A DNA stretch of 64,000 nt from Ignavibacteriaceae bacterium (GTDB taxonomy: Bacteria; Bacteroidota; Ignavibacteria; Ignavibacteriales; Ignavibacteriaceae). The notes under the pieces were generated by a model. That model searched no databases, was not told where the DNA came from, and was given only the letters and a program-made list of their open reading frames with translations. Shown here piece by piece: positions 1,913-24,858 of the stretch. The first letter of the stretch is position 1, and every line of letters begins with the position of its first letter. Made by a program: the position numbers and the translations under genes. The DNA lies in the NCBI GenBank assembly GCA_035266865.1, contig DATFMR010000098.1, positions 3,952 through 67,951 of the forward strand, given 5' to 3'.

Positions 1913-3559
1913 TCAGGCTTTTGAACCTGTTCTTTCTTTTACAATTGCATCGAGAGATTTTAACCTGGCAAAAATCCAGGCTCCACCAATAAATGCTGCA
2001 ACTGCGATAATTAGGAAAAATAGTTTCTTATCTGTAAAAGAATCCCAGAAACTTGCCATAATTCCTGCAGCTTTACCTCCAAGAGAAGTGGAAAGGAACC
2101 AGCCTCCCATCATTAAAGCTGTAACTCTTGCCGGAGCCAGCTTGGAAACAAGTGACAGTCCAATTGGGCTTAAAAACAATTCACTTACTGTAAAAACTCC
2201 ATATGTTAAAAAGAGCCAGTATGCTCCGGTTTTATGTGTATAAACTGAAGGTACAGACATAATTGCAAATACCATTACGAGCGCAGACAAACCGGAAATA
2301 AATAATGCCTGCCCAAATTTAGATGCAGTCGAAACCTCCTTGCCTCGTTTTCTACGCCAGGTAAACCATCCAACCACCAGCGGCGTCAATACAATAATAA
2401 AAAATGGATTTATAGATTGGAATAACTCTGCATTTGCAACCGTCAACACCTGGTTTGCACCGGGCCACTCATCTTTAGGAAGATTATTAAAATAGGGATC
2501 AATACCCATATGAGTTTCAACAACCCCAGCACTGTCTACAACAGGACGCATATACTGATCCACAACAGGTACTTCTTTTGGCTCTGTATTAATTTCTTGT
2601 ACCATATTTATGGCTTCAGCCGGTTTTTCCATAATTGGTGCTATTTCACGATTTGTGTATTGCTCTGCCCAAATCGTCAAACCTGTAGCATTCTGATTAT
2701 AAATTGTCCAGAATATTATTGAAATAGAAAAAATAAACAAAAGGGCACCAATTGCTCTTTTGTCAGATCCTGATGCTCTGACCCAGAGAGAAACATAAAA
2801 TGCTATAATTGGAATGCAGGCAAAAATAAAAGCATCATTGGAATCAGAGCCAAATAAATTACTGGGAATTATCCAGCCAATTATTGCAAATACAATTGCA
2901 GGAAGGAAAACATACATAAAAATCTGTGACATTGATGCATCTTCTTTTTCCATAGGCTTTTTAACATCTGCTTCTTTTACTTCTTTCAGACCCGATGCCA
3001 GCCAAATTAGTCCAATTAACAAACCTACTCCTGCCGCTGAAAAAGCATAACCCCAGCCATATGTATTTCTTAAATAAGCGGCTACAAAATTACAGACCAA
3101 AGCGCCTATATTTATTCCCATATAAAAGATATTATATGCATTATCTTTAAGGGGTTTAAGCTCTTCTTTATTGTAAATTATACCAAGTAGAGTACTGATA
3201 TTTGGTTTAAAAAATCCGTTACCTATAATTACAAGACCTAATGAAACAAACAGGGCAGTGTCACCCGGAAAAGCCAATCCGAAATAGCCGGCAGACATTA
3301 AGATTCCGCCAATAAATATTGATTTTATATAACCAAGATAACGATCAGCAATTAGTCCCCCGATAAAAGGAGTAAGATAAACGAGCGCAATAAATGAACC
3401 TACAATATCTGCGGCAGTACTTGTGTCAAAACCTTTTCCACCAGTTTTAGTATCAATTAAGTATAACAACAGTATACCTACCATCAGGTAATATCCAAAA
3501 CGTTCCCACATTTCGGTAAAGAATAGAACGTATAAACCTTTCGGGTGCTTTTTAAACAT
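1913..3559 (-). CDS. proton-dependent oligopeptide transporter (POT/PTR2 family, MFS)
   Basis: 548-aa multi-TM ORF with the N-terminal 'FTEMWERFGYYLMVGILLLYL' PTR2 signature. Confidence 0.9.
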   Translation of the reverse strand: MFKKHPKGLYVLFFTEMWERFGYYLMVGILLLYLIDTKTGGKGFDTSTAADIVGSFIALVYLTPFIGGLIADRYLGYIKSIFIGGILMSAGYFGLAFPGDTALFVSLGLVIIGNGFFKPNISTLLGIIYNKEELKPLKDNAYNIFYMGINIGALVCNFVAAYLRNTYGWGYAFSAAGVGLLIGLIWLASGLKEVKEADVKKPMEKEDASMSQIFMYVFLPAIVFAIIGWIIPSNLFGSDSNDAFIFACIPIIAFYVSLWVRASGSDKRAIGALLFIFSISIIFWTIYNQNATGLTIWAEQYTNREIAPIMEKPAEAINMVQEINTEPKEVPVVDQYMRPVVDSAGVVETHMGIDPYFNNLPKDEWPGANQVLTVANAELFQSINPFFIIVLTPLVVGWFTWRRKRGKEVSTASKFGQALFISGLSALVMVFAIMSVPSVYTHKTGAYWLFLTYGVFTVSELFLSPIGLSLVSKLAPARVTALMMGGWFLSTSLGGKAAGIMASFWDSFTDKKLFFLIIAVAAFIGGAWIFARLKSLDAIVKERTGSKA

Positions 3560-5303: not shown

Positions 5304-6461
5304 TTGAATATTCAGATTATAGATCTTTCAGATTATAAAGTATTTAAAATATTTATCAACAATTACAAAATATTTAAAGAAGTTCACGAAGTTGATCTGT
5401 TCGGCCTTGAACTAAGGGATATTCAACCTAAACTTGCTAATAATGTTCAAAGAATAATTTTAAGAGAAAAAGAAAATTGTTTCAAGAGAACTAATGGAAA
5501 TAGTAATATTGATCTTTTATTTACAGGTAATATTTCTGGATTTAAAGAGCTATCCGAAAATATTCTAGCAAGCGGAGGAGATGAAGATTTAGCTTACAAA
5601 ATTTTAAATTCAATTGAAAATTATTCCAATTATAATGATATAAGTTATAAAATAGGCAATAAAGAGTTCTCATTTAATCACCCTTATATTATGGGAATTT
5701 TGAATGTAACTGAAGACTCTTTTTCAGACGGAGGACTGTATTTTAGGACTGAAGAAGCTGTTAATCATGCAATTGTAATGATTAATGATGGAGCAGATAT
5801 TATTGATATAGGCGGTGAGTCAACAAGACCGGGAGCAAAATCAATTCATGTTGAAAAAGAGATAAAAAGGGTAATTCCAGTTGTAAAAGAAATATTAAAA
5901 CAAAAACCAGGGACAATAATTTCAGTAGATACTACCAAAAGTGAAGTCGCAGAAGAAGCTCTGCAAAACGGGGCAAAAATAATTAATGATATCAGCGGTT
6001 TTAGTTTTGATCCTAAAATTTTGGATGTAGTAAAAAAATATAATGCTTCCTATATTCTAATGCATATTAAAGGAACACCTGAAAATATGCAGAAAGAACC
6101 AATTTATGATGATATAATTAAAGATATTTATGATTATTTAGCAGAAAAAAGTAAGCAGTTGAAAAAAAAGGATGTGACTAATATTATTATTGATCCGGGA
6201 ATCGGATTTGGAAAAAATATGGAGCATAATTTTGAATTACTAAAAAGATTGGAAAATTTCAAATCTCTCGGTTTTCCAATATTGATTGGTTTATCTCGAA
6301 AATCTTTTATGGGGAAAATATTAAATTTAAATACAGAATTAAGAGATTTGCCAACATCTGTACTGGAAGCTATTGCGATTAATAACGGAGCACGCATTAT
6401 AAGAACTCATAATGTGAAAAATGGTGTTCAAGTTTGTAAATTAATGAGTAAACTTATATAA
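5304..6461 (+). CDS. folP: dihydropteroate synthase with N-terminal extension
   Basis: The C-terminal ~270 aa carry GILNVTEDSFSDGG, DIGGESTRPG, INDISG and DPGIGFGK. TTG start. About 115 aa of unassigned N-terminal sequence. Confidence 0.85.
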   Translation: MNIQIIDLSDYKVFKIFINNYKIFKEVHEVDLFGLELRDIQPKLANNVQRIILREKENCFKRTNGNSNIDLLFTGNISGFKELSENILASGGDEDLAYKILNSIENYSNYNDISYKIGNKEFSFNHPYIMGILNVTEDSFSDGGLYFRTEEAVNHAIVMINDGADIIDIGGESTRPGAKSIHVEKEIKRVIPVVKEILKQKPGTIISVDTTKSEVAEEALQNGAKIINDISGFSFDPKILDVVKKYNASYILMHIKGTPENMQKEPIYDDIIKDIYDYLAEKSKQLKKKDVTNIIIDPGIGFGKNMEHNFELLKRLENFKSLGFPILIGLSRKSFMGKILNLNTELRDLPTSVLEAIAINNGARIIRTHNVKNGVQVCKLMSKLI

Positions 6462-8138: not shown

Positions 8139-8927
8139 ATGGCAAAAGTAATTTCTGTAGCTAATCAAAAGGGAGGTGTAGGTAAAACTACAACTGCAAT
8201 AAATCTATCCTCATCATTAGCTGCTGCTGAAAAGAAGACTCTTTTAATCGATATTGATCCGCAGGCAAATTCTTCATCTGGATTAAGTGTACATAATCAT
8301 ACACCCTCTGTCTATGAGGTGCTAATTGGAGAACTGGAAATAAAAGACGCAATTGTAAACACGTATATGCCGAACCTGGATCTGATCCCTTCAAATATAA
8401 ATCTGGTTGGGGCCGAAATAGAAATGGTCGATATGGAAGACAGGGAAAGATTATTTAGTAATGCTGTGGCAAAAGTCAGAAATTTTTACGATTATATTAT
8501 AATAGATTGCCCGCCTTCTCTCGGGTTATTAACTCTAAATTCATTGGCTGGCTCAGATTCTGTGCTAATTCCAGTTCAATGTGAATATTTTGCTCTCGAA
8601 GGACTAGGACAGTTATTGAACACCATCAATATTGTAAAGCAGCATTATAATCCGGAGCTTACTATTGAAGGAGTCTTGCTGACAATGTTTGATATTAGAC
8701 TGAGGTTGTCACAACAAGTAGCAGACGAAGTAAAAAAATATTTCGGTGATAAAGTATTTAATACAATTATCCATAGAAATGTTAGAATATCAGAGGCCCC
8801 GAGTTATGGAAAACCTGTTATTTTATACGATGCGGTTTCAACCGGAGCAAAAAATTATATTGAACTTGCTTCAGAACTATTAAATAGAAATTCTAAAGAA
8901 AACTTAAACGCCAAAACCAATGAGTAA
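8139..8927 (+). CDS. parA: chromosome partitioning ATPase ParA/Soj
   Basis: Deviant Walker [12 protein letters not shown]. ParA-like throughout. Confidence 0.95.
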
Positions 8928-9867
8928 ACTAAAACCAGGATTGGGACGTGGCCTCGATGCATTAATTAATCCTGATGCACTAAGGGACAGCAAAAAAACG
9001 CCTGCAGATTATTCCGACCTTAAAAAAGATGAAGGCCATCAGGTTGATATAATGGCTAAAATCCCTGTAGATATGATTAAACCTAATCCCTTCCAGCCCA
9101 GATCCAACTTTGAGCCTGAAGCACTGGATGAATTAAAAAAATCTATACTTTCAAACGGATTGATTCAACCAATAACCGTAAGAAGAAGCGCTGATAAAGG
9201 TTACGAATTGATTTCAGGTGAACGCAGGTTAAAAGCATGCAAAGATATTGGATACAGAGATATACCTGCATATATAATTAAAGTAGACAGCAATGAGGCA
9301 ATGCTTGCCCTATCACTTATTGAAAATATTCAAAGAGAAAGATTAAATCCAATAGAAATTGGTCTGGCATATAAAAGATTAATAGAAGAATGCTCTTTAA
9401 CACAGGAAGAAATTGCTGAAAAAGTAGGTAAGGACAGGTCAACTGTAGCAAATTCAATCAGACTACTCAAACTACCACCGGAAATTCAGGAAAGTTTAAT
9501 AAAAGATGAAATTTCATCTGGACACGCCCGCGCAATTATCAATCTTCCAACTTCAAGTCTTCAATTAGGTGTTCTTAAAAAAATAATTAATAATAACCTG
9601 TCGGTTAGAAAAGTTGAACAACTTGTTAAAAAAATTATTACAGAAACTTCAACACCCAGAAGAAATGTATCAGGAAAGCATACAGTAAAGATCAGTTCTT
9701 CAAATCTCTCTGATGTTGAAGATAAGCTAAGAAAAATTTTCGGAACAAAGGTTTCCTGCAAACAAAAGCAGGGGGGAGCAGGGGAAATCATAATTGAATT
9801 CTATTCTAACGATGAGCTGGAAAGGTTATTTGAGCTTTTTGAAATTATCGATAAAACATATAATTAA
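8920..9867 (+). CDS. parB: chromosome partitioning protein ParB/Spo0J
   Basis: ParB box GERRLKA plus an HTH region. Overlaps the parA stop by 8 nt. Confidence 0.95.
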
Positions 9868-10348
9868 TATTTTAGCAATCATTTTTCTTTTTCAGACTGC
9901 AGTGCTTTCTCAAACTGATTCAGTTGATTCAAGCTCTGAACAAAAAAAAGATACAATTTTTGTTATGCATAAATCACCTTGGGGAGCAGTTCTCAGAAGT
10001 GCCATTTTACCAGGCTGGGGACAAATTTATAATGAATCCTATATTAAAGTTCCCATAGTTTGGGGAATAATTGGAAGTCTGGCTGCCGGGTGGATCTGGA
10101 ATAACAATAAATATAATAATGCAAATGATCTCTATCATCAAAACCTGAACGATTCCAGGCTTTCAGCAAATTATAAATTTCAGAGGAATTTTTATAGAGA
10201 TCAGCGGGATCTTTTTGCAATATACATTGGACTGGCATATTTTCTAAATATGGTAGATGCTTATGTTGATGCTCAGTTGTTCGATTTTACTGTGAAGGAA
10301 AATCCTTTTACAAAACAACCGTGGTTAAATTTAAATGTTAGGTTTTAA
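9812..10348 (+). CDS. DUF5683-like exported/membrane protein
   Basis: Signal-like N-terminus and an LPGWGQIYN motif. Positioned directly after parB, as in Bacteroidota-type genomes. The start is uncertain: ATG 9812 is chosen here, whereas the track ORF begins at TTG 9794 inside parB. Confidence 0.55.
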   Translation: MSWKGYLSFLKLSIKHIINILAIIFLFQTAVLSQTDSVDSSSEQKKDTIFVMHKSPWGAVLRSAILPGWGQIYNESYIKVPIVWGIIGSLAAGWIWNNNKYNNANDLYHQNLNDSRLSANYKFQRNFYRDQRDLFAIYIGLAYFLNMVDAYVDAQLFDFTVKENPFTKQPWLNLNVRF

Positions 10349-10362
10349 TAAAATTTAGCGAA

Positions 10363-11064
10363 ATGAATAATACAATAAACTGCCCAAATTGTAATGAAGA
10401 TAATCCATTTTATCAAAGTAAATGTTTAAAGTGTAATAGTTTTTTAAGAGATAAAGTCGCCAATATAAATCTCTGGGAAACCATTTCTCAGCTAATAGAA
10501 TCTCCGGTCGAAGCATTTAGTAAAATTATAAGATCAGAACATAAAAATTTTGTTGCTGTAATACTCTTCTTCTCTTCATTAAAAATATTCATTGATTCTA
10601 TATTTTTAATGATGTATGTAAATAAACAGGCTGGCGTGTTCGATTCCATAATTCTACAGGAAGCTATTATCTTAGGTATATTAATAATTGAAGTGATTTC
10701 AATTTCATTTATAATAAAAATAGTAACTGGACTGTTTGGACTAAGAACCAGACTAAAAGATAATTTTTCGATTCTAATTTATTCTCTTACTCCTCATGCT
10801 TTAGCAATTTGCATTTTATTCCCAATTGAACTTGTAGTTTTCGGCACCCAATTATTTTCAACTAATCCATCCCCGTTCGTTTTAAAAGAAACAATAGCTT
10901 ACATAATTTTCGGAATAGAGGGCATCATTATTTTATGGGCAATATTTTTAGCTGCAGCAGCAATTTATGCTCAAACAAGATCACTTTTTTTTGCTATTAT
11001 AACCGGCATATTGTTTAATGGAATAATACTTTATTCTTTGTATGTGTTAGACACAATAATATAA
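10363..11064 (+). CDS. membrane protein with N-terminal zinc ribbon (Yip1-like)
   Basis: CPNC...CLKC zinc-ribbon motif followed by about 5 TM helices. Confidence 0.5.
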   Translation: MNNTINCPNCNEDNPFYQSKCLKCNSFLRDKVANINLWETISQLIESPVEAFSKIIRSEHKNFVAVILFFSSLKIFIDSIFLMMYVNKQAGVFDSIILQEAIILGILIIEVISISFIIKIVTGLFGLRTRLKDNFSILIYSLTPHALAICILFPIELVVFGTQLFSTNPSPFVLKETIAYIIFGIEGIIILWAIFLAAAAIYAQTRSLFFAIITGILFNGIILYSLYVLDTII

Positions 11065-11079
11065 CTTTTAAGCCAACCC

Positions 11080-12252
11080 ATGGAACCATCATTTTTGGAA
11101 AAAGAAAAACAGTTGTTTTTCCATACATATAATCGTATTCCGCTTGAGATAAGCAGAGCTGAAGGTGTTCATTTAATTGATAAAAATGATAACAGGTACC
11201 TGGATCTTTTCTCCGGCCTCGCTGTAAATGCTTTGGGCTATTCTCATCCGAAAATCATCTCGGCTGTTATGCAGCAAATGACCAAATTTAGCCATTTATC
11301 TAATGGCTATATTTCCGATATTCAGCTAGAACTTGCTGAATTACTTATTAGTCACACGAGAATGTCTAAAGCGTTCTTTACAAACAGTGGTACTGAGGCT
11401 ATTGAAGGTACAATTAAATTAATCAGAAAAAAATTTGGTCCAGATAAAAAGATATATTCACTTAACAACTCATTTCACGGAAGAACATATGGCGCTTTGT
11501 CGCTTACAAATCGTGCAAAATATCAAAAAGGATTTGAACCCTTTTTACCTAATATAGATAAAATTGGATTTAATAATGTTGAAGATCTAAAGAATAAAAT
11601 TGATTCTAATACCGCGGCAGTTTTCATCGAATTTATTCAGGGAGAGGGCGGTGTAAATATAGTTTCAAATGATTTTATTGAAGAATTAAAAAAATTAAGG
11701 AAGAAATATGAATTTGCCATAGTTGCCGATGAAATACAGACCGGAATTGGTAGAACAGGAAAAAAGTTTGGTTTTAGTGACTTTGATATTTCCCCAGATA
11801 TAATTGTTCTCGCAAAAGCTCTAGGCGGAGGACTGCCACTTGGTGCATTTTTAGCAACTTCAAAATTTGATGATATATTTAAGGCAGGAAATCATGGAAC
11901 AACTTTTGGCGGAAACCCGGTTTGCTGTGCCGCAGGAAAAGTGGTACTGACAGAAGTTTTTGAAAATGGATTAATGGAACATGTTAAAATAGAAGGAGAA
12001 TACCTTATTTCGCAATTAAATGAATTGGCAAAATTATTTCCGGAAAAAATAAGTAAAATAAGAGGAAAGGGCTTTATGGTTGGAATTGAATTACTAGAAC
12101 CTGGAATGCCATATGTTTCAAAGATGAGAGAACGAAGAGTTCTGATTAATTGTACCAATAGTAATGTTATTCGCTTGCTCCCGCCATTGATTATTTCAAA
12201 AAACGATATTGATTTTTTTCTTTTTAATCTACACGAGCTCTTAAAAGTTTAA
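11080..12252 (+). CDS. argD: class-III PLP aminotransferase (acetylornithine aminotransferase-like)
   Basis: SGTEA, FHGRT, DEIQTGIGRTG and a LAKALGGG region holding the PLP lysine. Confidence 0.8.
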   Translation: MEPSFLEKEKQLFFHTYNRIPLEISRAEGVHLIDKNDNRYLDLFSGLAVNALGYSHPKIISAVMQQMTKFSHLSNGYISDIQLELAELLISHTRMSKAFFTNSGTEAIEGTIKLIRKKFGPDKKIYSLNNSFHGRTYGALSLTNRAKYQKGFEPFLPNIDKIGFNNVEDLKNKIDSNTAAVFIEFIQGEGGVNIVSNDFIEELKKLRKKYEFAIVADEIQTGIGRTGKKFGFSDFDISPDIIVLAKALGGGLPLGAFLATSKFDDIFKAGNHGTTFGGNPVCCAAGKVVLTEVFENGLMEHVKIEGEYLISQLNELAKLFPEKISKIRGKGFMVGIELLEPGMPYVSKMRERRVLINCTNSNVIRLLPPLIISKNDIDFFLFNLHELLKV

Positions 12253-15653: not shown

Positions 15654-15727
15654 CGGAACGTGGCGCAGCCCGGTAGCGTACCTGAATGGGGTTCAGGTGG
15701 TCGCGGGTTCAAATCCCGCCGTTCCGA
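15654..15727 (+). tRNA. tRNA-Pro (anticodon GGG)
   Basis: Hand-folded cloverleaf. Acceptor stem CGGAACG/CGTTCCG. Anticodon stem CCTGA/TCAGG with loop ATGGGGT (U33, GGG at 34-36, G37). T-arm GCGGG-TTCAAAT-CCCGC. 74 nt, no encoded CCA. Confidence 0.9.
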
Positions 15728-15974: not shown

Positions 15975-16376
15975 CTATTGACTAACTTTTAGGGGAAAGA
16001 CATATTCACTTTTGGAAAGATATTGACTATTTCCAAATTCAAAGCTTTTTAATGCTTGTTCAACAGTATCGGCTACATTAAATATATTAATAGTACCTGA
16101 TTTTGCTAGAATTGTGTTAGCTATAGATTTCGGTTGTACAATACGTAGCTCCCCACTGATTTTGGCTACCTCTTTTAAAGTAATAACAAGTACGCCAATA
16201 AAAGTTGAATCTATAAACTCACATTGACTCAGATCAATAACCATTTTTCTGAATCCTTTTATAATATCCTGATTGAGGATATGCCTTAATAATCCAGCTT
16301 CTTTATAAGTGGCTCGTGTAAGGTTAACAGTTTCAACAATGATATCCTTAAAAATAGTTTTTTTGAAATCTTCCAT
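15975..16376 (-). CDS. STAS-domain protein (anti-sigma-factor antagonist-like)
   Basis: 133 aa. DLSQCEFIDSTFIGVLV resembles the SpoIIAA/RsbV DSSG region with Ser/Thr retained. Confidence 0.7.
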   Translation of the reverse strand: MEDFKKTIFKDIIVETVNLTRATYKEAGLLRHILNQDIIKGFRKMVIDLSQCEFIDSTFIGVLVITLKEVAKISGELRIVQPKSIANTILAKSGTINIFNVADTVEQALKSFEFGNSQYLSKSEYVFPLKVSQ

Positions 16377-16655: not shown

Positions 16656-17204
16656 TTAATTATTATTTTTGAGTGAATAGATTGGCAAATTAATCTGGAA
16701 ACAAGTTTCTCCAGGTTTTGACCTAACAGATATTTCACCCTTATGTTTTTGCGTTATTATATTGTGGCTTATGCTTAATCCTAATCCAGTTCCTTCACCA
16801 GGTGGTTTAGTAGTGAAAAACGGATCGAAAACCTTGCCCAGGATTTCTTCCGGAATGCCAGGTCCATCATCCATTAATTCTATTACAATGTTAAGACCTT
16901 GTTTATAAGTTTTCAGTATAATTTTCCCCGTCCCATTCATAGATTTAATTGAATTGTCGATAATATTTGTCCACACTTGGTTTAGTTCACTTCCGTAGGC
17001 TTGAATTTTAGGTATATCGGATGAATAATTTCTTTCAACAGTTATATTGCCTTTAAGCTGACTTCTTAGCATAACCAGAGTATTATTTAGTCCTTCATGA
17101 ATATCAACTGATTGAATGGGTCCCTGGTCAAGATATGAATATGATTTTAAAGCTTTTACAATTTCAGTAATTCTTCCTGCTCCCTGGCCGATTTCTTCAA
17201 TCAA
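16656..17204 (-). CDS. histidine kinase C-terminal fragment (end of DHp plus HATPase_c), probably a truncated remnant
   Basis: N/G1/F/G2 boxes present (DNSIKSM, DDGPGI, FDPFFTTKPPGEGTGLGL). No H-box and no sensor domain in frame. A stop lies 12 codons upstream of the TTG start, and only about 160 bp remain before the divergent gene. Confidence 0.6.
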   Translation of the reverse strand: MIEEIGQGAGRITEIVKALKSYSYLDQGPIQSVDIHEGLNNTLVMLRSQLKGNITVERNYSSDIPKIQAYGSELNQVWTNIIDNSIKSMNGTGKIILKTYKQGLNIVIELMDDGPGIPEEILGKVFDPFFTTKPPGEGTGLGLSISHNIITQKHKGEISVRSKPGETCFQINLPIYSLKNNN

Positions 17205-17419
17205 ACTATGAATAACATTGGTACTGGTAATTGATTCTTATTAAAATTATTGACCAGCTTTGATAGTTCTTTTATTCAAGCCACGATTCAATTTCAGTTT
17301 CCATATCACTTCGCAACAGGGGATTTAATTCAACAAGTGGAATTGCCTTTTCATGAATTTGTCACTTGACAATCATAATAAATTTATACTGTTTTCAGCT
17401 ATTGTTTTCAGGACATTTA

Positions 17420-18859
17420 ATGACAAAAAAAAATTCTATCATAATTATAATTCTTCTTTTCGCTTTGTCTGCAAAAGGACAGACGATTGGGCATGTTACG
17501 GTAAAAACCTGGCCGAATGACATGAAGTCGGCTTTTTCATTTACATTTGACGACTGTTTTAAATCACAATACGATTACGCATTACCGGTTTTAAATTCAT
17601 TTGGTTTTAAAGGAACGTTCTATGTAATTGCTGAAGAACCAACCGAACAGGGCGAACCTTTAAACTGGCGATATGCTACCTGGGACCAATTCAGGGAAAT
17701 TGCCCAACAGGGACACGAAATAGGTTCTCACAGTATGACCCATCCGCATCTCCAAACGCTACAAACAGGAGATATAAACACACCTAATACAATTTATTAT
17801 GAATTGTATCAATCCAAAAAATTAATCGAAAATAAAATTCCGGGCATAAAAGTAATAACATTTGCTTATCCATATACTGAATACAATCCGACTGTTATAT
17901 CCATTGCAGGTCAATATTATGAGGCTTCCAGAAGAGGAAATGGCATACCTAATAATTCTGTAATAACAGGTACTGATTGGCAAAAAATAAATTCATATGA
18001 AGTGCAGTTCAATCTTCCAAGGGATATTGTTAATGATGACAATGACGAATTAAATGAAATTGAGAATACACTGCAAAATGAAGTAATTGATAATGGCAAA
18101 TGGGGAATGTTATTTGCGCATGAGGTTTTGCCTTTTTCACAGATTCCTGATGCAGTTGCTGCCGGTTATTGGTACCCTATGTCCACAGAATGGCTGAATG
18201 CTTTTTGCCAATGGATGAAAAATAAATCAGATAATAATGATATTTGGGTAAACACAGTTGCAAACGTCACAAAATATATAAAGGAGAGAGAAAACTTTGT
18301 AGCAAATGTAGTTTCAGTAACTGATACCTTAATCGTGTTAAGTCTTACCGATAATCTTGATGATACAATCTTCAATTATCCTCTAACCTTGGACATACAG
18401 GTTCCTTCTGTCTGGGAAACTGTATTGATCAAACAGGGAGGAATTACAATACCGACAGATTCTATTTTTGTAGCAGGAAATAATACCTATGTTAGAACTA
18501 AAATCATTCCCGATGCAGGCAATATAAGTCTTAAAAAAGATGCAACTACAGGAATTGCAATTAATAATAACATTCCCATTGAATACAAATTAATGCAAAA
18601 TTACCCGAATCCATTTAATCCAAGTACAAAAATTGGATACATAATACCATTTGAAAGTAAAGTATCGATAAAAATATTTAATTTATTAGGACAGGAAATA
18701 AAAGAGTTACAAGGTTCTACAGAATCTGCGGGATATCATGAGGTATTGTTTAATGCCAGTAATTTAGCTTCTGGAATTTATTTCTACAAAATTGTTGCAA
18801 TTTCAACCAATGGTAAGAATATATTTGTTGATACCAAAAAACTGAATTTTACTAAATAA
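17420..18859 (+). CDS. secreted polysaccharide deacetylase (NodB-type) with T9SS C-terminal sorting domain
   Basis: Signal peptide MTKKNSIIIIILLFALSAKGQ, TFDDC and HSMTHPH NodB motifs, and a C-terminal YPNPFNPSTKI...YFYKI Por/T9SS tail. ATG 17420 is preferred over TTG 17366. Confidence 0.8.
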   Translation: MTKKNSIIIIILLFALSAKGQTIGHVTVKTWPNDMKSAFSFTFDDCFKSQYDYALPVLNSFGFKGTFYVIAEEPTEQGEPLNWRYATWDQFREIAQQGHEIGSHSMTHPHLQTLQTGDINTPNTIYYELYQSKKLIENKIPGIKVITFAYPYTEYNPTVISIAGQYYEASRRGNGIPNNSVITGTDWQKINSYEVQFNLPRDIVNDDNDELNEIENTLQNEVIDNGKWGMLFAHEVLPFSQIPDAVAAGYWYPMSTEWLNAFCQWMKNKSDNNDIWVNTVANVTKYIKERENFVANVVSVTDTLIVLSLTDNLDDTIFNYPLTLDIQVPSVWETVLIKQGGITIPTDSIFVAGNNTYVRTKIIPDAGNISLKKDATTGIAINNNIPIEYKLMQNYPNPFNPSTKIGYIIPFESKVSIKIFNLLGQEIKELQGSTESAGYHEVLFNASNLASGIYFYKIVAISTNGKNIFVDTKKLNFTK

Positions 18860-18906
18860 ATATTGAATACCTGCCTAATTAACTTCAATTAGAAATTCCC
18901 TTTCCG

Positions 18907-18929
18907 CTCCGTATTAATACTTAGTGAGT
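18907..18929 (+). promoter_or_regulatory. repeat element copy A (CTCCGTATTAATACTTAGTGAGT)
   Basis: Shares its first 15 nt with the 20-mer family and matches 20/23 with the reverse-strand copy at 23651-23673. Confidence 0.7.
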
Positions 18930-18991
18930 AACGTTAAAGCCAATTTTATTTCGTTTTATGTCTAAAATCAAACTATTCAAAATCATCTTTT

Positions 18992-19011
18992 CTCCGTATT
19001 AATACTGATTC
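18992..19011 (+). promoter_or_regulatory. repeat element copy B (CTCCGTATTAATACTGATTC)
   Basis: Exact 20-mer, identical to the copies at 21494 and 23742. Palindromic core GTATTAATAC. Confidence 0.75.
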
Positions 19012-19184
19012 TTTTAATCTCATTTATGGTTAGCTTAAATAAGAATTATCGGGAATTGCAAAATTTGCCGATTATTCTGAAGAAATTTTAGTTAAAACTA
19101 AAAAAAGGATAAAAGTTACACTTGCAATTAATATACTGCAATCAAGGATAAACAATAATCAAGATTCTTTATCCGGTGCATGTT

Positions 19185-19568
19185 TTAATTAATAATTAAA
19201 TGCGAATGAAGAGTTTCGAGCAATTGATCTTTTTCATAGGGCTTTATTAAAACATTGCTGAAACCCAGTTCTTTTAAATACTGAATATCCTCAGTGTAGG
19301 AATTTCCAGCTACAACAATTATCGGAATAGATTTGTATTTTTTTATTTCTCTCAGAGTAAACATTAAATCTATTCTGCTGGTTTCGGTAGAACGATCAAT
19401 ATTTATTGTTATTGCCGAATAGTTATATTCTGCAACAAGTTTTTCGGCTTCTTTTATTGATACAGCTACATGACAGAAAAATAAACCTTCAACATATTCC
19501 TGAATCAGCAAAGGGCTATCAAGTTTATCATCTACCAGTAGCAAATAGGGTAAATTTGATGTATTCAT
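19185..19568 (-). CDS. single-domain response regulator (receiver only)
   Basis: LLVDD acidic pocket, candidate phospho-Asp in TINID and an LIKPY lysine. No output domain. Confidence 0.75.
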   Translation of the reverse strand: MNTSNLPYLLLVDDKLDSPLLIQEYVEGLFFCHVAVSIKEAEKLVAEYNYSAITINIDRSTETSRIDLMFTLREIKKYKSIPIIVVAGNSYTEDIQYLKELGFSNVLIKPYEKDQLLETLHSHLIIN

Positions 19569-19894
19569 TTTCTCCCCGTTTTCTTTTAGGCTGAGTGGAA
19601 TCTAACCCAAATTCTGGCAAATCCCAAACCGTTTACTAACTGAAACCTGCCGTTGGATAACTCAAATGACACAAATCTGGGAAAACAGGACCGAAACCGC
19701 GCGAATTCAGGTTTAAAGCATATTCGGAAGAGACGCTCAAATTTCACCCAAAAGAGGGAAGTTGCAGGCCGATATGAGGCAAATATAAATAAGAAAATTA
19801 ATTGACGGGACAGACCTTTCAGGGGAGAGGTTATCCCGATTCATTTAATACTTTTAAAATAGTAACTGTTAATTAACCAAAAATATAATTAAAG

Positions 19895-20260
19895 ATGAAA
19901 TCACATACCAGAAGAGCGGTTGCACTAATATCTGCTACTATTATCAATAAACAGACATATTCTTTAATACAGAATATTGAAAATTATGAATTTCATAAAC
20001 TTTCGTGCAATATCCTTCCTACAATGATTGATGCCTATGATGATGAAATGAAATGTTTTATAAAGGGGAACATTAAAGAAGATAAGATTTCTATTTACCA
20101 TTTCGGTAATGCCAATTATATTGATCTAAAAATAAATAATAATCACTTTGAAGGTTTTGATTATGATTCAGTAACTGATTTTACAGGGGACTTGAACGAC
20201 GATCAAATTTCGTTAAATGATCATGAATACCAAAAGGTTTTTGAGTATTTAGTGAAATAG
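19895..20260 (+). CDS. hypothetical protein
   Basis: 121-aa acidic ORF with no signal peptide. No motif recognised. Confidence 0.45.
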   Translation: MKSHTRRAVALISATIINKQTYSLIQNIENYEFHKLSCNILPTMIDAYDDEMKCFIKGNIKEDKISIYHFGNANYIDLKINNNHFEGFDYDSVTDFTGDLNDDQISLNDHEYQKVFEYLVK

Positions 20261-20693
20261 TAGGAATATTTGTTAAATCTATTTCATATTTAATGACCAG
20301 TGCTTTCAACTAAGACAGATACAAGAGAAAGATTTAAATAAACAAGATAATCTTGATTATTAAAATGGGACTTATAATATTTTGATTATATACAAATCAA
20401 AAGAAATTTTATTAAACTACATTAAAAGAGCATTAAAGTAATAATTAAATTGACAATATTATTCCAGATTTTTAGCTTCAAGTTTTTCAACAAAGTCCAT
20501 TCACACCTTCAATATTCCTTAATATTAAATAATATTATTAAATTAAGGATTTTTAGACAACCGACAGTTTGGTTTTGAAATATAGCAATATTAATATCAT
20601 TTTAAGGATAAAATTTATTCATTAGTAAAAATTTCAAATAAAATAATTAACTTCTACATAGTATTTATTTTAAATATTTTAATAAGCAATAAT

Positions 20694-21425
20694 ATGTTTA
20701 TGAAAAAAAGTACAAAAGTATTTTTATCCTTATTTTATATTGTTTTTACAATTTCCGGATTTTCCCAGGATATTGCTAATAAAGAAAGCAGGGGAACAAG
20801 AACGATATTCCTGATCCGGCACGGCGAATATTCCTCCCAAATGGACAATAAATCGGATGCAGGAAAAAGACTCACTCCTCTCGGAATTGCACAAGCCAGG
20901 TTGGTTTCTGCAAGGTTAAAAGCAATGAATACAAAATTCAATTCTCTTATCAGCAGCACTATGACAAGAGCAAGGGAAACAGCGGAAGTTATAAACCGTG
21001 ATTTCCCGGAAATGAAGCTCGAACAATCTGATCTAATAAGAGAATGCACTCCGCCTACGTGGAGAAATGATATTATGGCGGACAGAGATTCAACAGATAT
21101 TGGTTGTGTCGAAAATCTAGAAAGAGCATTCAAAAAATACTTTGTCCCTTCTCCGGATGGTAAAGATCGTAATGATATAATAGTCTGCCACGGAAATGTG
21201 ATTAGATATTTTGTGACAAAGGTATTAAAAGTCGATGAAATGTCGTGGTTGCAGATGAGTATTTCCAATTGCAGTTTGACAATCGTAAGGATCTTACCCG
21301 ATGAAAGAATGAAACTGGATGTATTCAGCGATTACGGACACATTCCGGAAAATATGAGAACATTTACGGGCGGCGAGAATAAGTCAAAAGAGCTATTGAT
21401 AAATAAGGAGAATATCCACCACTAA
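20694..21425 (+). CDS. exported histidine phosphatase superfamily (phosphoglycerate mutase-like) protein
   Basis: Signal peptide (KKSTKVFLSLFYIVFTISGFSQ), catalytic LIRHGE and a distal CHGNVIRY histidine. Confidence 0.75.
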   Translation: MFMKKSTKVFLSLFYIVFTISGFSQDIANKESRGTRTIFLIRHGEYSSQMDNKSDAGKRLTPLGIAQARLVSARLKAMNTKFNSLISSTMTRARETAEVINRDFPEMKLEQSDLIRECTPPTWRNDIMADRDSTDIGCVENLERAFKKYFVPSPDGKDRNDIIVCHGNVIRYFVTKVLKVDEMSWLQMSISNCSLTIVRILPDERMKLDVFSDYGHIPENMRTFTGGENKSKELLINKENIHH

Positions 21426-21493
21426 AATTCATTTACTAATTCCGTCTAGTCCATCAGATTAAAACCTTCAAAACTGCCAAATTTTCAATTTTG

Positions 21494-21513
21494 CTCCGTA
21501 TTAATACTGATTC
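21494..21513 (+). promoter_or_regulatory. repeat element copy C (CTCCGTATTAATACTGATTC)
   Basis: Exact 20-mer ending 56 nt upstream of ATG 21570. An AAGGGAG SD lies between them. Confidence 0.75.
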
Positions 21514-21569
21514 CTTTTACATATATGAGTAATATATTTTACAGACTTAATTATCCAAGGGAGTGAAGT

Positions 21570-21800
21570 ATGAGAGAGTTTATAATTAAAAAACAACTGG
21601 AGCATTTTATTTTGGATAAATTTGTTAATTTCGAGGAGTATCAGGATAAGTTTTACTTGAAAAAGAGAATCCAGGAAATTGTACCCGGGAAAAATGATGA
21701 TATAGTGTACCGGGCGATTGAAGAGGCAAATACCGTTTTAAAACCGCCGCGGAAAAGAACTGATTACATCAGAGTATTGCTGGAGAATCTTCAAATTTAA
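21570..21800 (+). CDS. small hypothetical protein, first gene of the HK/RR operon
   Basis: 76-aa ORF with an SD (AAGGGAG). It ends 16 nt before the kinase start. Confidence 0.5.
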   Translation: MREFIIKKQLEHFILDKFVNFEEYQDKFYLKKRIQEIVPGKNDDIVYRAIEEANTVLKPPRKRTDYIRVLLENLQI

Positions 21801-21816
21801 TTTGGAAAAATTCTAA

Positions 21817-22983
21817 ATGAATTTTGATAGTCTTATAGATATTTTTTTTGACGCAAATAACCCAATATTTTTCGCACTCTTATTTACTTTTATTTTAGCG
21901 ATTACTTTTTATCTGATTCACAAGTATGTACGCCTTCCTGATATACAAAAGCATAAGCTCGAACTAAATGAAGCCGAATTAAGAAATGCGCGCGTTATGG
22001 CAATGTTCGCAGAGCTTGATCCTGATCCTTTGATAAGAATTGACCCGGATGGAATAATAATAAAAACCAATGATGCCGCAAAAAGATTTTTTGAAAATCC
22101 TGTAACTGAAAACACAAATATTAATAAAATTTTACCGGGTATAGATTTTTCAATTTACGATTTTGTTTACGGAGATAAATCTGAAATAATTTATAACAAA
22201 ATAGGGGAGAGATATTATTCAATATCAATAAAAGGAATTTCATATCTGCATATTGCACAGCTTTACTTTAATGACCTAACAGATAGAATAAAATTTGAAA
22301 AGGAATTAAAATTATCACAGGAACAACTGAAAGAATTGATTAATTATGAACAGAATATGATTGAGGACGAGCGAAAAAGACTTGCAATGGAACTTCACGA
22401 TGGAATCGGACAGGATCTGGTTGTAATGAAAATGAGCGCTTCAAATGCGCTTGAAAAAGCAAAGAACAATGAAGATATTCAGTATTATAAAAAGCTCTTA
22501 AATTCACTGGATAATACAATTAATAATTTAAAAGGTGTTTTGTACGATCTGAAACCGAGAGTACTTGAGGAACTTGGATTAGAAGCAGCAATTAAGACAA
22601 TGAGCAAAAAAATTACTGCCGAATCAGGTATTACAAGCCACGTAAATTTTAGTGGCTTAAATGAGAGGCTTGATGAAAAACAGGAAACGACCATTTACAG
22701 AATAGTTCAGGAAGCCTTAAATAATATTGTAAAACATTCTGGGGCTAAAGAATATGATATAAACCTGTTTTCCAGGGATGGGAAAATTAAAATAATAATT
22801 TCAGATGACGGCACCGGGTTCGAAACGGAAGGGAATAACTTTTCTACTTCCGGATTTGGCCTGAGAGGAATTAAAGAAAGGGTTGAAAATAATCAGGGTA
22901 CTTTCAATATTGAATCTTCAAAAGACTCAGGCACAGAAATTATGGTTGAACTGCCTAAGAGAGAGAAGCAAAATGAAAAATGA
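21817..22983 (+). CDS. sensor histidine kinase, HisKA_3 (NarX/DegS-like) class
   Basis: One N-terminal TM helix, a PAS-like region, the H-box ELHDGIGQDL and HATPase_c (EALNNIVKHS, DDGTGF, GFGLRGI). Confidence 0.85.
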   Translation: MNFDSLIDIFFDANNPIFFALLFTFILAITFYLIHKYVRLPDIQKHKLELNEAELRNARVMAMFAELDPDPLIRIDPDGIIIKTNDAAKRFFENPVTENTNINKILPGIDFSIYDFVYGDKSEIIYNKIGERYYSISIKGISYLHIAQLYFNDLTDRIKFEKELKLSQEQLKELINYEQNMIEDERKRLAMELHDGIGQDLVVMKMSASNALEKAKNNEDIQYYKKLLNSLDNTINNLKGVLYDLKPRVLEELGLEAAIKTMSKKITAESGITSHVNFSGLNERLDEKQETTIYRIVQEALNNIVKHSGAKEYDINLFSRDGKIKIIISDDGTGFETEGNNFSTSGFGLRGIKERVENNQGTFNIESSKDSGTEIMVELPKREKQNEK

Positions 22984-23659
22984 AAAAAACATAAGAATTT
23001 TACTTGGTGATGATCATTCGTTATTGAGAGAAGGAATTACCAGCATACTACAGAACGAAAAAGATCTATTTATCGTGGGAGAAGCTGAAAACGGCGTTGA
23101 ACTAGTAGATAAATATTTTAAGCTAAAACCGGATATAGTTATTACGGATATTACAATGCCTAAAATGTCCGGAACAGATGCTTCTAAAAAGATAAAAAGA
23201 AAAGAACCGGAGGCTAAAATTCTTTTCTTATCGATGCACGAAGGTGAAGAATACATTTATTACACTTATAAAGCAGGGGGTTCGGGACTTGTTAACAAAA
23301 ATATAATTAAGGGAGAGCTCATTTTTGCTATAAGGAAAGTCCTTAACGGTGAGTTTTATTTTGGCCCGGATATAGATTCAAATATTTTAGGTAAAATTAT
23401 TGAAAGCTACAGCAGCGATTATAATTATTTAAAGAATAAATACAATTTAGATATTTCAGAAAGAGAGGTTGATGTATTGCATTTAATAGGAGATGGCTTA
23501 TCAAGCACAGAAATTGCTGATAAACTAGGAGTAGGGAAAAGGACAATAGATACTCACAGGATAAACCTTATGCAGAAATTAAATTTAAAAAACCTTCCGG
23601 CACTTATCAGGTTTGCAGTAAATTTTAACCAGGAATTTAAAGACAAACCTACTCACTAA
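22973..23659 (+). CDS. NarL/LuxR-family response regulator
   Basis: REC domain (LLGDDH, ITDITMP) plus a LuxR HTH (LSEREVDVLHLIGDGLSSTEIADKLGVGKRTIDTHR). ATG 22973 overlaps the kinase stop by 11 nt. Confidence 0.9.
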   Translation: MKNEKNIRILLGDDHSLLREGITSILQNEKDLFIVGEAENGVELVDKYFKLKPDIVITDITMPKMSGTDASKKIKRKEPEAKILFLSMHEGEEYIYYTYKAGGSGLVNKNIIKGELIFAIRKVLNGEFYFGPDIDSNILGKIIESYSSDYNYLKNKYNLDISEREVDVLHLIGDGLSSTEIADKLGVGKRTIDTHRINLMQKLNLKNLPALIRFAVNFNQEFKDKPTH

Positions 23660-23673
23660 GTAGTAATACTTAG
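23651..23673 (-). promoter_or_regulatory. repeat element copy E (reverse strand CTAAGTATTACTACTTAGTGAGT)
   Basis: 20/23 identical to copy A but inverted. It overlaps the last two codons and the stop of the response regulator. It is also self-complementary (CTAAGTA-gtaa-TACTTAG). Confidence 0.65.
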
Positions 23674-23741
23674 GCAACTGATATAGTAACTTTAAATATG
23701 CTCATTTTGGGCTACAATCAACGATTTTAAAATTTAACACA

Positions 23742-23761
23742 CTCCGTATTAATACTGATTC
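23742..23761 (+). promoter_or_regulatory. repeat element copy D (CTCCGTATTAATACTGATTC)
   Basis: Exact 20-mer ending 73 nt upstream of ATG 23835. Confidence 0.75.
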
Positions 23762-23834
23762 ATTTTCTAAGCTTATCCAATAGATTCATCATGGCTTAAA
23801 TAACTATTTTCCTAACAAATAAAGGAAAACGGCC

Positions 23835-24272
23835 ATGAATCACACCTTTAAGACAACCGCATTTTTTCTATTCTTTTTTCTTTTCTCCACCGGCACATCG
23901 TTCAGCCAGAATTACGGACAGATATTTTCTAAATCGGAAGCAAACCAGGATTTTGGAGCAGTAACAAGTACAATAACAATTACTACTTCACAGCTTCAAA
24001 ACGTTTTAAATAAAACTGCAAATGTTTTGATGTTTAGAATTAAAGATAGTAATTTATTGGTGCTCGGAGATGATAGGAATGTTTTGTATGGTTCTACCGA
24101 ATCAATTCCTCCGGCAGATGTTTACAAAGTTTACAGTAAATCTAAAATTAATGAATTAATTAAATCCGGCGGAACAAATACAGTATTCATTGAACAGAGA
24201 GAGAATGCATTAACAATTACAATTGGAGAATACACTTTAGAAATGGGTGCGGATTGTCCTCCATGGTGTTAA
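23835..24272 (+). CDS. secreted hypothetical protein with C-terminal CPPWC
   Basis: Signal peptide TTAFFLFFFLFSTGTSFSQ. 145 aa. The only two Cys are in the terminal ADCPPWC. Confidence 0.55.
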   Translation: MNHTFKTTAFFLFFFLFSTGTSFSQNYGQIFSKSEANQDFGAVTSTITITTSQLQNVLNKTANVLMFRIKDSNLLVLGDDRNVLYGSTESIPPADVYKVYSKSKINELIKSGGTNTVFIEQRENALTITIGEYTLEMGADCPPWC

Positions 24273-24279
24273 TAATTTT

Positions 24280-24858
24280 ATGACATTTGAATATTTAGCA
24301 ACTTATTTAAACTCATTTGCATATATTCTTCCGCCATTCCGTCAATATGGCGGAAGATATTTCATTTATTTTGTTGTACTTGCGTTGGGAAATCCATTCA
24401 TAGTTCTTCTTGCAGAAACCAACCACATAAATCCCAACTATTCAATTTGCATGGTAGCATGGGCAGCATTTGTATCAATTATTGATAAAAAATGGATAAA
24501 AGAGAGAGCCCTATACTTCATAATTTTGACCTTGTTATTATATTTCGGAGTATTCTATTTAGAACATACAGTTGTACGAATTATAATCATAACTCTTAAT
24601 TTTTTTATATTGTTTCATTTTATAAAAGAAGCAGCCAAATATTATGGTGAAAATTATTCGCTTCATTCCGGATTCTTTATTCTTGCATTATATGAAATTG
24701 GCATAATTTCAAAATTATACCTTATTGTAAGCAACATTAAGCTGGGAGTAGCTTATTTCTACCTGACCGATCTTTTTGAAATACTTATAGCAATTTTCTT
24801 CACTTTTTATAAAGTCGAAAATTCACCAATAATCAGGTTTAAAAAAGTTGAAAAGTGA
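24280..24858 (+). CDS. hypothetical polytopic membrane protein
   Basis: About 6 hydrophobic helices. ATG 24280 lies 8 nt after the preceding stop; the track start 24247 overlaps the upstream gene. Confidence 0.5.
   Translation: MTFEYLATYLNSFAYILPPFRQYGGRYFIYFVVLALGNPFIVLLAETNHINPNYSICMVAWAAFVSIIDKKWIKERALYFIILTLLLYFGVFYLEHTVVRIIIITLNFFILFHFIKEAAKYYGENYSLHSGFFILALYEIGIISKLYLIVSNIKLGVAYFYLTDLFEILIAIFFTFYKVENSPIIRFKKVEK

Follow-up and report, generated by a model that had tools for sequence, protein, structure and literature searches.

What sequence is repeated ahead of the genes of the signalling block in an uncultured Ignavibacteriaceae bacterium, and which protein reads it? We analyzed a 64,000-nt stretch (hereafter, the window) of the metagenome-assembled genome (MAG; 33% GC) of this organism, in which the 20-mer CTCCGTATTAATACTGATTC recurs in a family of five sites. 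We consider it fairly likely that the 20-mer is the upstream half of an activator-dependent promoter, bound by the adjacent NarL/GerE-type response regulator and forming with it a positively autoregulated mini-regulon. The exact 20-mer was found three times, always on the + strand (sites B, C, and D below), and a variant copy (CTCCGTATTAATACT followed by TAGTGAGT; site A) shares its first 15 nt and then diverges; shuffled window sequence gave 0 matches of this quality. The 10-mer GTATTAATAC within it, which can fold into a 3-bp stem at most, has four occurrences in the 64 kb, all within the four + strand copies. A reverse-strand relative (site E) is an 18-bp palindrome with one mismatch, and the TAA stop (23657–23659) of the regulator gene falls within its first four bases.

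18907–18924, + strand: site A, distal-type 7-4-7 repeat CTCCGTA-TTAA-TACTTAG, 24.4 bits (end extended to 18929, TGAGT, in the preliminary description)
18992–19011, + strand: site B, proximal exact 20-mer CTCCGTA-TTAA-TACTGAT-TC, exact match with promoter geometry
21494–21513, + strand: site C, proximal copy ahead of the operon for the 76-aa open reading frame (ORF), kinase, and regulator, exact match with orthologous sites in relatives
23656–23673, no strand assigned: site E, distal palindrome CTAAGTAgTAATACTTAG over the regulator stop codon, 22.8 bits
23742–23761, + strand: site D, proximal copy upstream of the CPPWC/multi-transmembrane (multi-TM) gene pair, exact match with orthologous sites in relatives

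Using a symmetrised half-site matrix, the five sites scored 22.8–24.4 bits (the next best 18-mer in the 64 kb scored 10.2). All five sit in three intergenic regions of one block, and a matrix scan of ~5 kb of extra flank beyond the window found no further site. The family 18-mers CTCCGTATTAATACTGAT, CTCCGTATTAATACTTAG, and CTAAGTAGTAATACTTAG are the putative regulator-bound sequences. The preliminary description of this DNA had listed the three exact copies, the copy at 18907 sharing 15 nt, and a reverse-strand relative, had placed sites C and D 56 nt and 73 nt before the next ATG, and had seen no 20-mer in the rest of the window; all of this proved correct. Its statement that N-TTTT follows each copy needs amending at site B, where TTTT follows directly without the N. 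Four near-identical strain contigs are collinear, with 0–9 single-nucleotide polymorphisms that all fall outside the five sites and are too few for gauging constraint.

The sites are conserved, co-occur with a gene cassette, and keep a fixed geometry. In the window, this cassette consists of five genes:

21570–21800, + strand: 76-aa ORF heading the operon, no Pfam/NCBIfam family, kept in all orthologous cassettes
21817–22983, + strand: HisKA_3/HATPase_c sensor kinase with one N-terminal transmembrane segment
22973–23659, + strand: NarL/FixJ-type response regulator (receiver plus GerE helix-turn-helix [HTH]; HKI78651), the candidate site binder
23835–24272, + strand: 145-aa secreted protein ending in CPPWC, a presumed target, no Pfam/NCBIfam/PDB relative
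24280–24858, + strand: 192-aa multi-TM protein, conserved together with the CPPxC gene, a presumed target

Homologues of the regulator (53–67% identity) were traced to their contigs, which represent seven diverged lineages. Each relative encodes a five-gene cassette (77-aa ORF, HisKA_3 kinase, regulator, 145-aa secreted protein, and 190-aa membrane protein), the orthology of which was confirmed by alignments, including an invariant C-terminal C-P-P-x-C. The cassette neighbourhoods differ between relatives (e.g., trp operon, amylase genes, TonB receptor) and the intergenic regions have drifted, with the position and orientation of the site unchanged. The site precedes the small ORF in contigs L015, L016, L020, L024, L026, and L027, reading CTACGTAATTGTACTGATTT (L016, L026), CTACGTAATTATACTGATTy (L020, L024), or CTACGTACATATACGTATTT (L015), and it precedes the CPPxC gene in L014, L015, L016, L024, and L025, reading CTACGTAGTTATACTGATTC (L014, L015), CTACGTACTATTACTGATTC (L024, L025), or ATACATAGTTCTACTGATTC (L016). 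Palindromes in the position of site E, 6 nt after the regulator stop, are present in L014 (AAGTATTAATACGT) and L015 (ACGTATTAATACGT), and L014 has an extra module in which a distal and a proximal site lie ahead of a 141-aa/294-aa gene pair. The most diverged regulator (L027, 53% identity) was held out of matrix construction, and the top-scoring 18-mer in its 16.7 kb (CTCAGCATATATACGGAG) lies directly at the expected place upstream of the small ORF. No site was found in L029 and L030, in which a distant CPPxC/multi-TM pair has no two-component system next to it, and across lineages this system is the sole constant neighbour of the sites. Conserved placement, the L027 result, and the siteless L029 and L030 support the suggestion, made in the preliminary description, that the element is a putative operator for a dimeric HTH protein in an autoregulated mini-regulon, with the LuxR-type regulator as the nearest candidate.

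As the conserved unit, we identified an 18-bp inverted repeat, MTMMGTA-N4-TACKKAK, in which a 4-bp AT-rich spacer separates two heptamers; the half-site consensus is TACKKAK. In the window and the relatives combined, half-site positions 3, 4, and 8 are T, A, and A in 42/42 cases and position 5 is C in 41/42. This repeat of two short half-sites fits the size of a predicted HTH-dimer operator. The perfect 10-bp palindrome to which the preliminary description had drawn attention exists in this lineage only and is missing from the sites of relatives; it is not the conserved unit. In the longer asymmetric block in which it was said to lie, the 3' part, TGATTC, belongs to the fixed-geometry promoter described below.

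Two classes of site can be distinguished. Distal sites (A, E, the E-position palindromes of relatives, and an A-type copy on a second contig of this organism, L012) are nearly symmetric, typically with TACTTAG or TACGTAG, and those at E, at the L015 E position, and on L012 are near-perfect palindromes. Distal copies (A, E, the L014 and L015 palindromes, and CTAAGTATAAnTACGTAG of other relatives) carry neither TGATTC nor a downstream hexamer. Proximal sites (B, C, D, and their orthologues) have an almost invariant gene-side heptamer, TACTGAT, followed by TC or TT. Exactly 19 nt past TGATTy, a TAnnTT hexamer (most often TATATT) is present in 16/19 proximal sites, and any other offset between 10 and 29 has TAnnTT in one site at most. 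The site centre lies 30.5 nt upstream of this hexamer, and no TTGACA-like −35 hexamer was found at the proximal sites. In the window, the predicted −10-like hexamers at the fixed offset are:

19031–19036, + strand: TAGCTT, 19 nt after site B
21533–21538, + strand: TATATT, after site C
23781–23786, + strand: TAGATT, after site D

If the hexamer is a −10 element at −12 to −7, the centre of the repeat would be located near −42.5. Transcription would then start near 21545 at site C, leaving a 5' untranslated region (UTR) of ~25 nt that contains AAGGGAG, and near 23793 at site D, and a start near 19043 is predicted for site B. The Bacteroidota-type sigma-A consensus (−33 TTTG and −7 TAnnTTTG, boxes ~19–21 nt apart) was also tested. 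The full TAnnTTTG is present at some sites (L024, TACCTTTG; L027, TAGTTTTG), and the window copies read TATATTTT, TAGATTCA, and TAGCTTAA at this position. TAnnTTTG was not enriched upstream of window genes (3 observed, 3.2 expected), and a strict −7 box of this type is not supported as a general feature of the window.

Scanning a metagenome collection recovered the organism's own copy of site D and a new locus, L012, on a 52.8-kb contig from the same sample. The L012 proteins HKI79915 and HKI79916 share their accession series and MAG name with the regulator HKI78651. Because L012 belongs to the same MAG, the motif family is not limited to the signalling block genome-wide, so that the confinement to this block proposed earlier holds for the window and its ~5 kb flank, with two sites known elsewhere. 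These are the A-type copy CTCCGTATTAATACTTAGTGGGC and, on the opposite strand, the proximal-type copy cATTCAGTATTAATACTGATTCATTT, which points at a DUF3892 gene ~97 nt away. A SpoIIE/PP2C phosphatase gene (L012 3577–4806, − strand) lies beside the sites, just upstream.

Distal and proximal sites are separated by the following distances between their centres:

RNA promoters of relatives (described below): 21 bp
L012: 74 bp
L015: 74 bp
L014: 76 bp
A–B: 85 bp
E–D: 86 bp
L014, second module: 87 bp

These spacings lie near 2, 7, and 8 helical turns, which is no more than suggestive in so small a sample. The A–B, E–D, and L012 spacers share an extra box, roughly TTTTGGnCTAAAATC, that relatives lack. 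It can be written as (C/G)TTTT(A/G)(T/G)GnCTAnAATC(A/G) (window 18953–18972 and 23703–23722; L012 ~3430–3455, − strand), contains an IHF-like AATCAA, and may be either a remnant of module duplication or the site of a second protein. A–B, E–D, and L012 are probably paralogous promoter modules of ~110 bp. The flanks of these modules are down to roughly half identity and the 20-mer is unchanged. Selection on the site is therefore clear, because the flanks diverged with the 20-mer untouched and the orthologues keep its core.

Based on these properties, we propose that a dimer of the phosphorylated regulator would bind the 18-bp 7-4-7 repeat. The promoters at proximal sites would have a −10 element and lack a −35 element; a dimer bound there would overlap the −35 region and act as a class II activator, recruiting RNA polymerase. 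Site C would thereby confer positive autoregulation on the 76-aa/kinase/regulator operon, sites E and D would control the gene pair for the secreted CPPWC protein and the multi-TM protein, a short hairpin RNA or a transcript antisense to an orphan receiver gene would come from sites A and B, and the L012 pair would act on the DUF3892 gene. Sites A and E, which are symmetric and lie 85–86 bp upstream of B and D (~8 helical turns), would allow cooperative binding or looping. Which protein binds, whether it activates, and where transcription starts are what we infer from sequence, and we favour the regulator as the binder because it is the only constant neighbour, has the only recognisable DNA-binding domain, keeps its recognition-helix region, and has precedents in its family. 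It is the sole cassette protein with a recognisable DNA-binding domain, its recognition-helix region KRT(I/V)D(T/S)HR is kept across orthologues, and its closest solved homologues are VraR and LiaR (E = 4.5e-31).

The most similar known site is that of SsrB, a NarL-family regulator that binds an 18-bp 7-4-7 degenerate palindrome in Salmonella pathogenicity island 2 (SPI-2) promoters, where a single gene-facing heptamer suffices (PMC2837388). Both elements are 18-bp degenerate palindromes of heptamer, variable 4-bp spacer, and heptamer, both are conserved islands in drifting promoters, and in both the gene-side heptamer is the better kept (PMC2837388). They differ in that the half-site here is TACKKAK, the host belongs to the Ignavibacteriota and not to the Proteobacteria, the regulators are not orthologous, and binding is a prediction in the present case. 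NarL activates yeaR and napF from 7-2-7 sites at −38 to −47 and −40 to −49 (PMC4549865). The regulator studied here belongs to the same receiver plus GerE family as NarL and NarP, the known sites of which are also inverted heptamers starting with TAC (TACCCCT-AA-AGGGGTA), and the activating sites lie over the −35 region (~−38 to −49), compared with a position of ~−42.5 predicted here (PMC4549865). However, the TAC triplets face the dyad and are 4 bp apart in the Ignavibacteriaceae sites, whereas in 7-2-7 sites they form the outer ends around a 2-bp spacer, and the scores of our kinase and regulator fall well short of the NarX/NarL cut-offs.

In the LiaFSR and VraSR systems, a small accessory gene precedes the kinase and regulator genes, with presumed positive autoregulation from an upstream inverted repeat. 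The cassette resembles these systems in the small gene ahead of kinase and regulator, in its predicted autoregulation, and in having VraR and LiaR as the closest solved homologues of its regulator. It differs from them in that the 76-aa ORF lacks a LiaF or VraT signature and the putative targets are a secreted CPPxC protein and a 190-aa membrane protein, with nothing that ties the system to envelope stress.

Even though the type of element is ordinary and no new mechanism is revealed, this putative operator/promoter motif has not been described before, and it belongs to an uncharacterised but conserved Ignavibacteriaceae two-component cassette. It provides a testable cis-regulatory code (18-bp 7-4-7 operator, 19-nt gap, and TAnnTT hexamer) and a predicted minimal regulon, comprising the sensor operon, the CPPxC protein with its membrane partner, the DUF3892 gene, and a candidate small RNA in relatives. 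The motif can be used for regulon prediction in MAGs and offers rare evidence on how promoters are built in a phylum for which hardly any transcription data exist.

Several points weigh against the activator model. The left heptamer is also kept, but asymmetrically (CTaCGTA compared with TACTGAT), and a symmetric dimer alone is an insufficient explanation for this. L020 and L026 have no site upstream of the CPPxC gene, showing that this target is not universal, and there is no obvious gene for site B to drive. The −10 assignment and the −42.5 position are both features that we infer from the letters of the promoters. The identity of the 20-mer copies may stem in part from recent duplication of the ~110-bp module and not from selection alone, and the size of the regulon is a lower bound, given that it covers the window, the ~5 kb flank, and the contigs recovered by the scans.

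It is unlikely, though worth weighing, that a different transcription factor (the 76-aa protein or a regulator encoded elsewhere) binds the sites, or that binding represses instead of activates. The regulator is linked to the sites only by association, neither a fold nor a family is known for the 76-aa protein, and a site overlapping the −35 region can also be a repressor operator. However, family scans and profile searches detected no DNA-binding signature in the 76-aa and CPPxC proteins, the 18-bp 7-4-7 repeat is a documented architecture for NarL-family dimers, and the missing −35-like hexamer points to dependence on an activator.

The block could also be read directly by an alternative sigma factor, an option named in the preliminary description. 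TACTGATTC would then be a −35-like and TAnnTT a −10-like element, with a 19-nt spacer and incidental palindromy. The strictly fixed spacing and the directional conservation are what such a reading would predict, the right half is better kept than the left, relatives have lost the perfect palindrome, and partner-switching proteins are encoded near two of the loci (a STAS protein at 15975–16376 and the SpoIIE/PP2C phosphatase at L012). We nevertheless give it a poor chance, since it leaves unexplained the symmetric distal copies that lack TGATTC and the hexamer. In none of the seven lineages does a sigma or anti-sigma gene accompany the cassette, the sole constant neighbour being the two-component system, and a distance of 19 nt after TGATTC (20 nt after CTGATT) is long for a −35/−10 pair of the sigma-70 family.

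Repetitive extragenic palindromic (REP) elements, miniature inverted-repeat transposable elements (MITEs), or the recombinase and mobile-element sites that were considered in the preliminary description would account for three exact 20-mers in direct orientation 2.2–2.5 kb apart and for the paralogous look of the ~110-bp A–B, E–D, and L012 segments, but we reject such an origin as very improbable, because the copies are few (five sites in 64 kb and one further pair on L012) and hold orthologous, promoter-oriented positions in diverged relatives despite drifted flanks, no recombinase or transposase is present among the ORFs listed for 14–30 kb or the ten block proteins scanned against Pfam, the four strain contigs are collinear without rearranged variants, and large scans returned only the organism's own loci plus chance or unrelated matches.

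With regard to those scans, searching 185,579 species genomes for CTCCGTATTAATACTKAKTS gave two chance matches only (a planctomycete and a Caulobacterales MAG), in a collection that does not hold the source species. Over all scans, which covered 596 Gb of genomes as well as the metagenome collection and IMG/VR, the matches were the organism's own loci and otherwise chance or unrelated ones. The metagenome scan gave seven stretches, four of which come from a single coding locus in an unrelated organism (45% GC) and another from the phage-like contig L009; IMG/VR contributed a phage locus that had been sampled eight times plus one singleton, which we regard as chance matches. L009 (44% GC, with its own repeated AATGTCAACTCCGTAnTTATAC) was judged unrelated or coincidental. 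Its repeats (VFSW01025428.1, 415–460, 1546–1563, and 1660–1700), which consist of AATGTCAACTCCGTA(G/T)T(T/A)ATAC(G/T)GATT and the palindrome GTCCGTATTAATACGC, closely resemble the Ignavibacteriaceae site, and the contig has small unannotated ORFs; coincidence and mimicry are both conceivable. A full-text literature search for GTATTAATAC returned unrelated primers and constructs only, and a further literature search found no paper on Ignavibacteria promoters or on the cassette.

Sites A and B form a complete distal/proximal module on the + strand, located between convergent genes and with no ORF after B. The genes in this part of the block, and a hairpin next to site B, are:

17366–18859, + strand: polysaccharide deacetylase with a type IX secretion system (T9SS) tail
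19185–19568, − strand: lone receiver protein (orphan receiver)
19895–20260, + strand: 121-aa ORF of no family
20694–21425, + strand: secreted protein with a histidine-phosphatase fold
19042–19078, + strand: hairpin AGAATTATCGG...CCGATTATTCT where the B transcript is predicted to start (z-score −2.0, weak)

This hairpin has its foot at the predicted start near 19043, and the orphan receiver gene lies past it on the opposite strand. Either the hairpin is itself a short RNA, or it may terminate transcription in both directions, with read-through giving a transcript antisense to the receiver gene. Site B itself may drive a short RNA like that of relatives, may drive an antisense transcript, or may be vestigial. 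In four relatives, a third site follows the membrane-protein gene, with the palindrome CTAAGTATAAnTACGTAG 21 bp before it, and precedes a hairpin of ~66 nt that is strongly conserved and carries a U-run (AAAGAACAUCUGG...CCAGAUGUUCUUUUU); its loop is conserved and one pair is compensatory. The approximate positions of this feature are:

L016: 10572–10640
L020: 9942–10010
L024: 9992–10060
L026: 6845–6913

This hairpin is a candidate new small RNA under putative two-component control. It has no match in Rfam and was not found when searched for in the window, where the only Rfam match at gathering score is one tRNA (15654–15727) and the region 18800–20700 has none at E ≤ 1. The A/B module was also considered as a remnant of the 3' end of a LuxR gene (A and E share TACTTAGTGAGT, and E overlaps the stop codon). 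This idea was dropped in favour of distal operators because the distal palindromes of L012, L014, and L015 do not overlap coding ends. In L027, a DDE transposase (10023–11276) is inserted just past the cassette. A lone receiver gene comes next, which is reminiscent of the one close to the A/B module.

A broader interpretation sees the five-gene cassette as a self-contained, quorum-sensing-like autoinducing circuit, in which one promoter type drives the sensor operon, a CPPxC signal with its membrane partner, and a hairpin RNA. Here, the CPPxC protein would be the signal, the 190-aa membrane protein would process or sense it, the sensor operon would supply positive feedback, and the RNA output would be the 66-nt RNA in relatives and possibly, in this organism, the hairpin or an antisense transcript downstream of site B. 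Such wiring would be similar to that of agr P2/P3, with the difference that a HisKA_3/NarL pair of the Fibrobacterota–Chlorobiota–Bacteroidota (FCB) superphylum is involved; we regard the circuit as quite improbable. The CPPxC family evolves fast, the C-P-P-x-C motif being invariant and located within the last six C-terminal residues in the window and the orthologues. Its gene is always ahead of that of the 190-aa polytopic membrane protein, which has no Pfam, NCBIfam, or PDB relative, and PDB profile searches with the CPPxC and 76-aa families returned nothing meaningful.

Some minor features of the region were also recorded. Near the window sites, partner-switching-type genes encode the STAS protein (15975–16376, − strand) and a 182-aa kinase catalytic fragment (HATPase ORF, 16656–17204, − strand), for which truncation or a mis-called start is possible; in relatives, the cassette is not accompanied by genes of this type. 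Between the divergent genes for the lone receiver and the 121-aa ORF lies an intergenic region of 326 nt (19569–19894) that appears by eye to have a G+C content above the 33% background, has no Rfam match at E ≤ 1, and folds no better than shuffled sequence on either strand. Upstream of the CPPxC start (25–45 nt), a box GCTTAAAT(N)AACTATTTTC was found in the window (23792–23811), L020 (~8750–8775), L026 (~5660–5685), and L016 (~9378–9400). It is kept even in L020 and L026, where the regulator site upstream of CPPxC is missing, and may represent either an element of the 5' UTR or an additional promoter that does not depend on the regulator. Site B is followed by a similar sequence, TAGCTTAAATAA.

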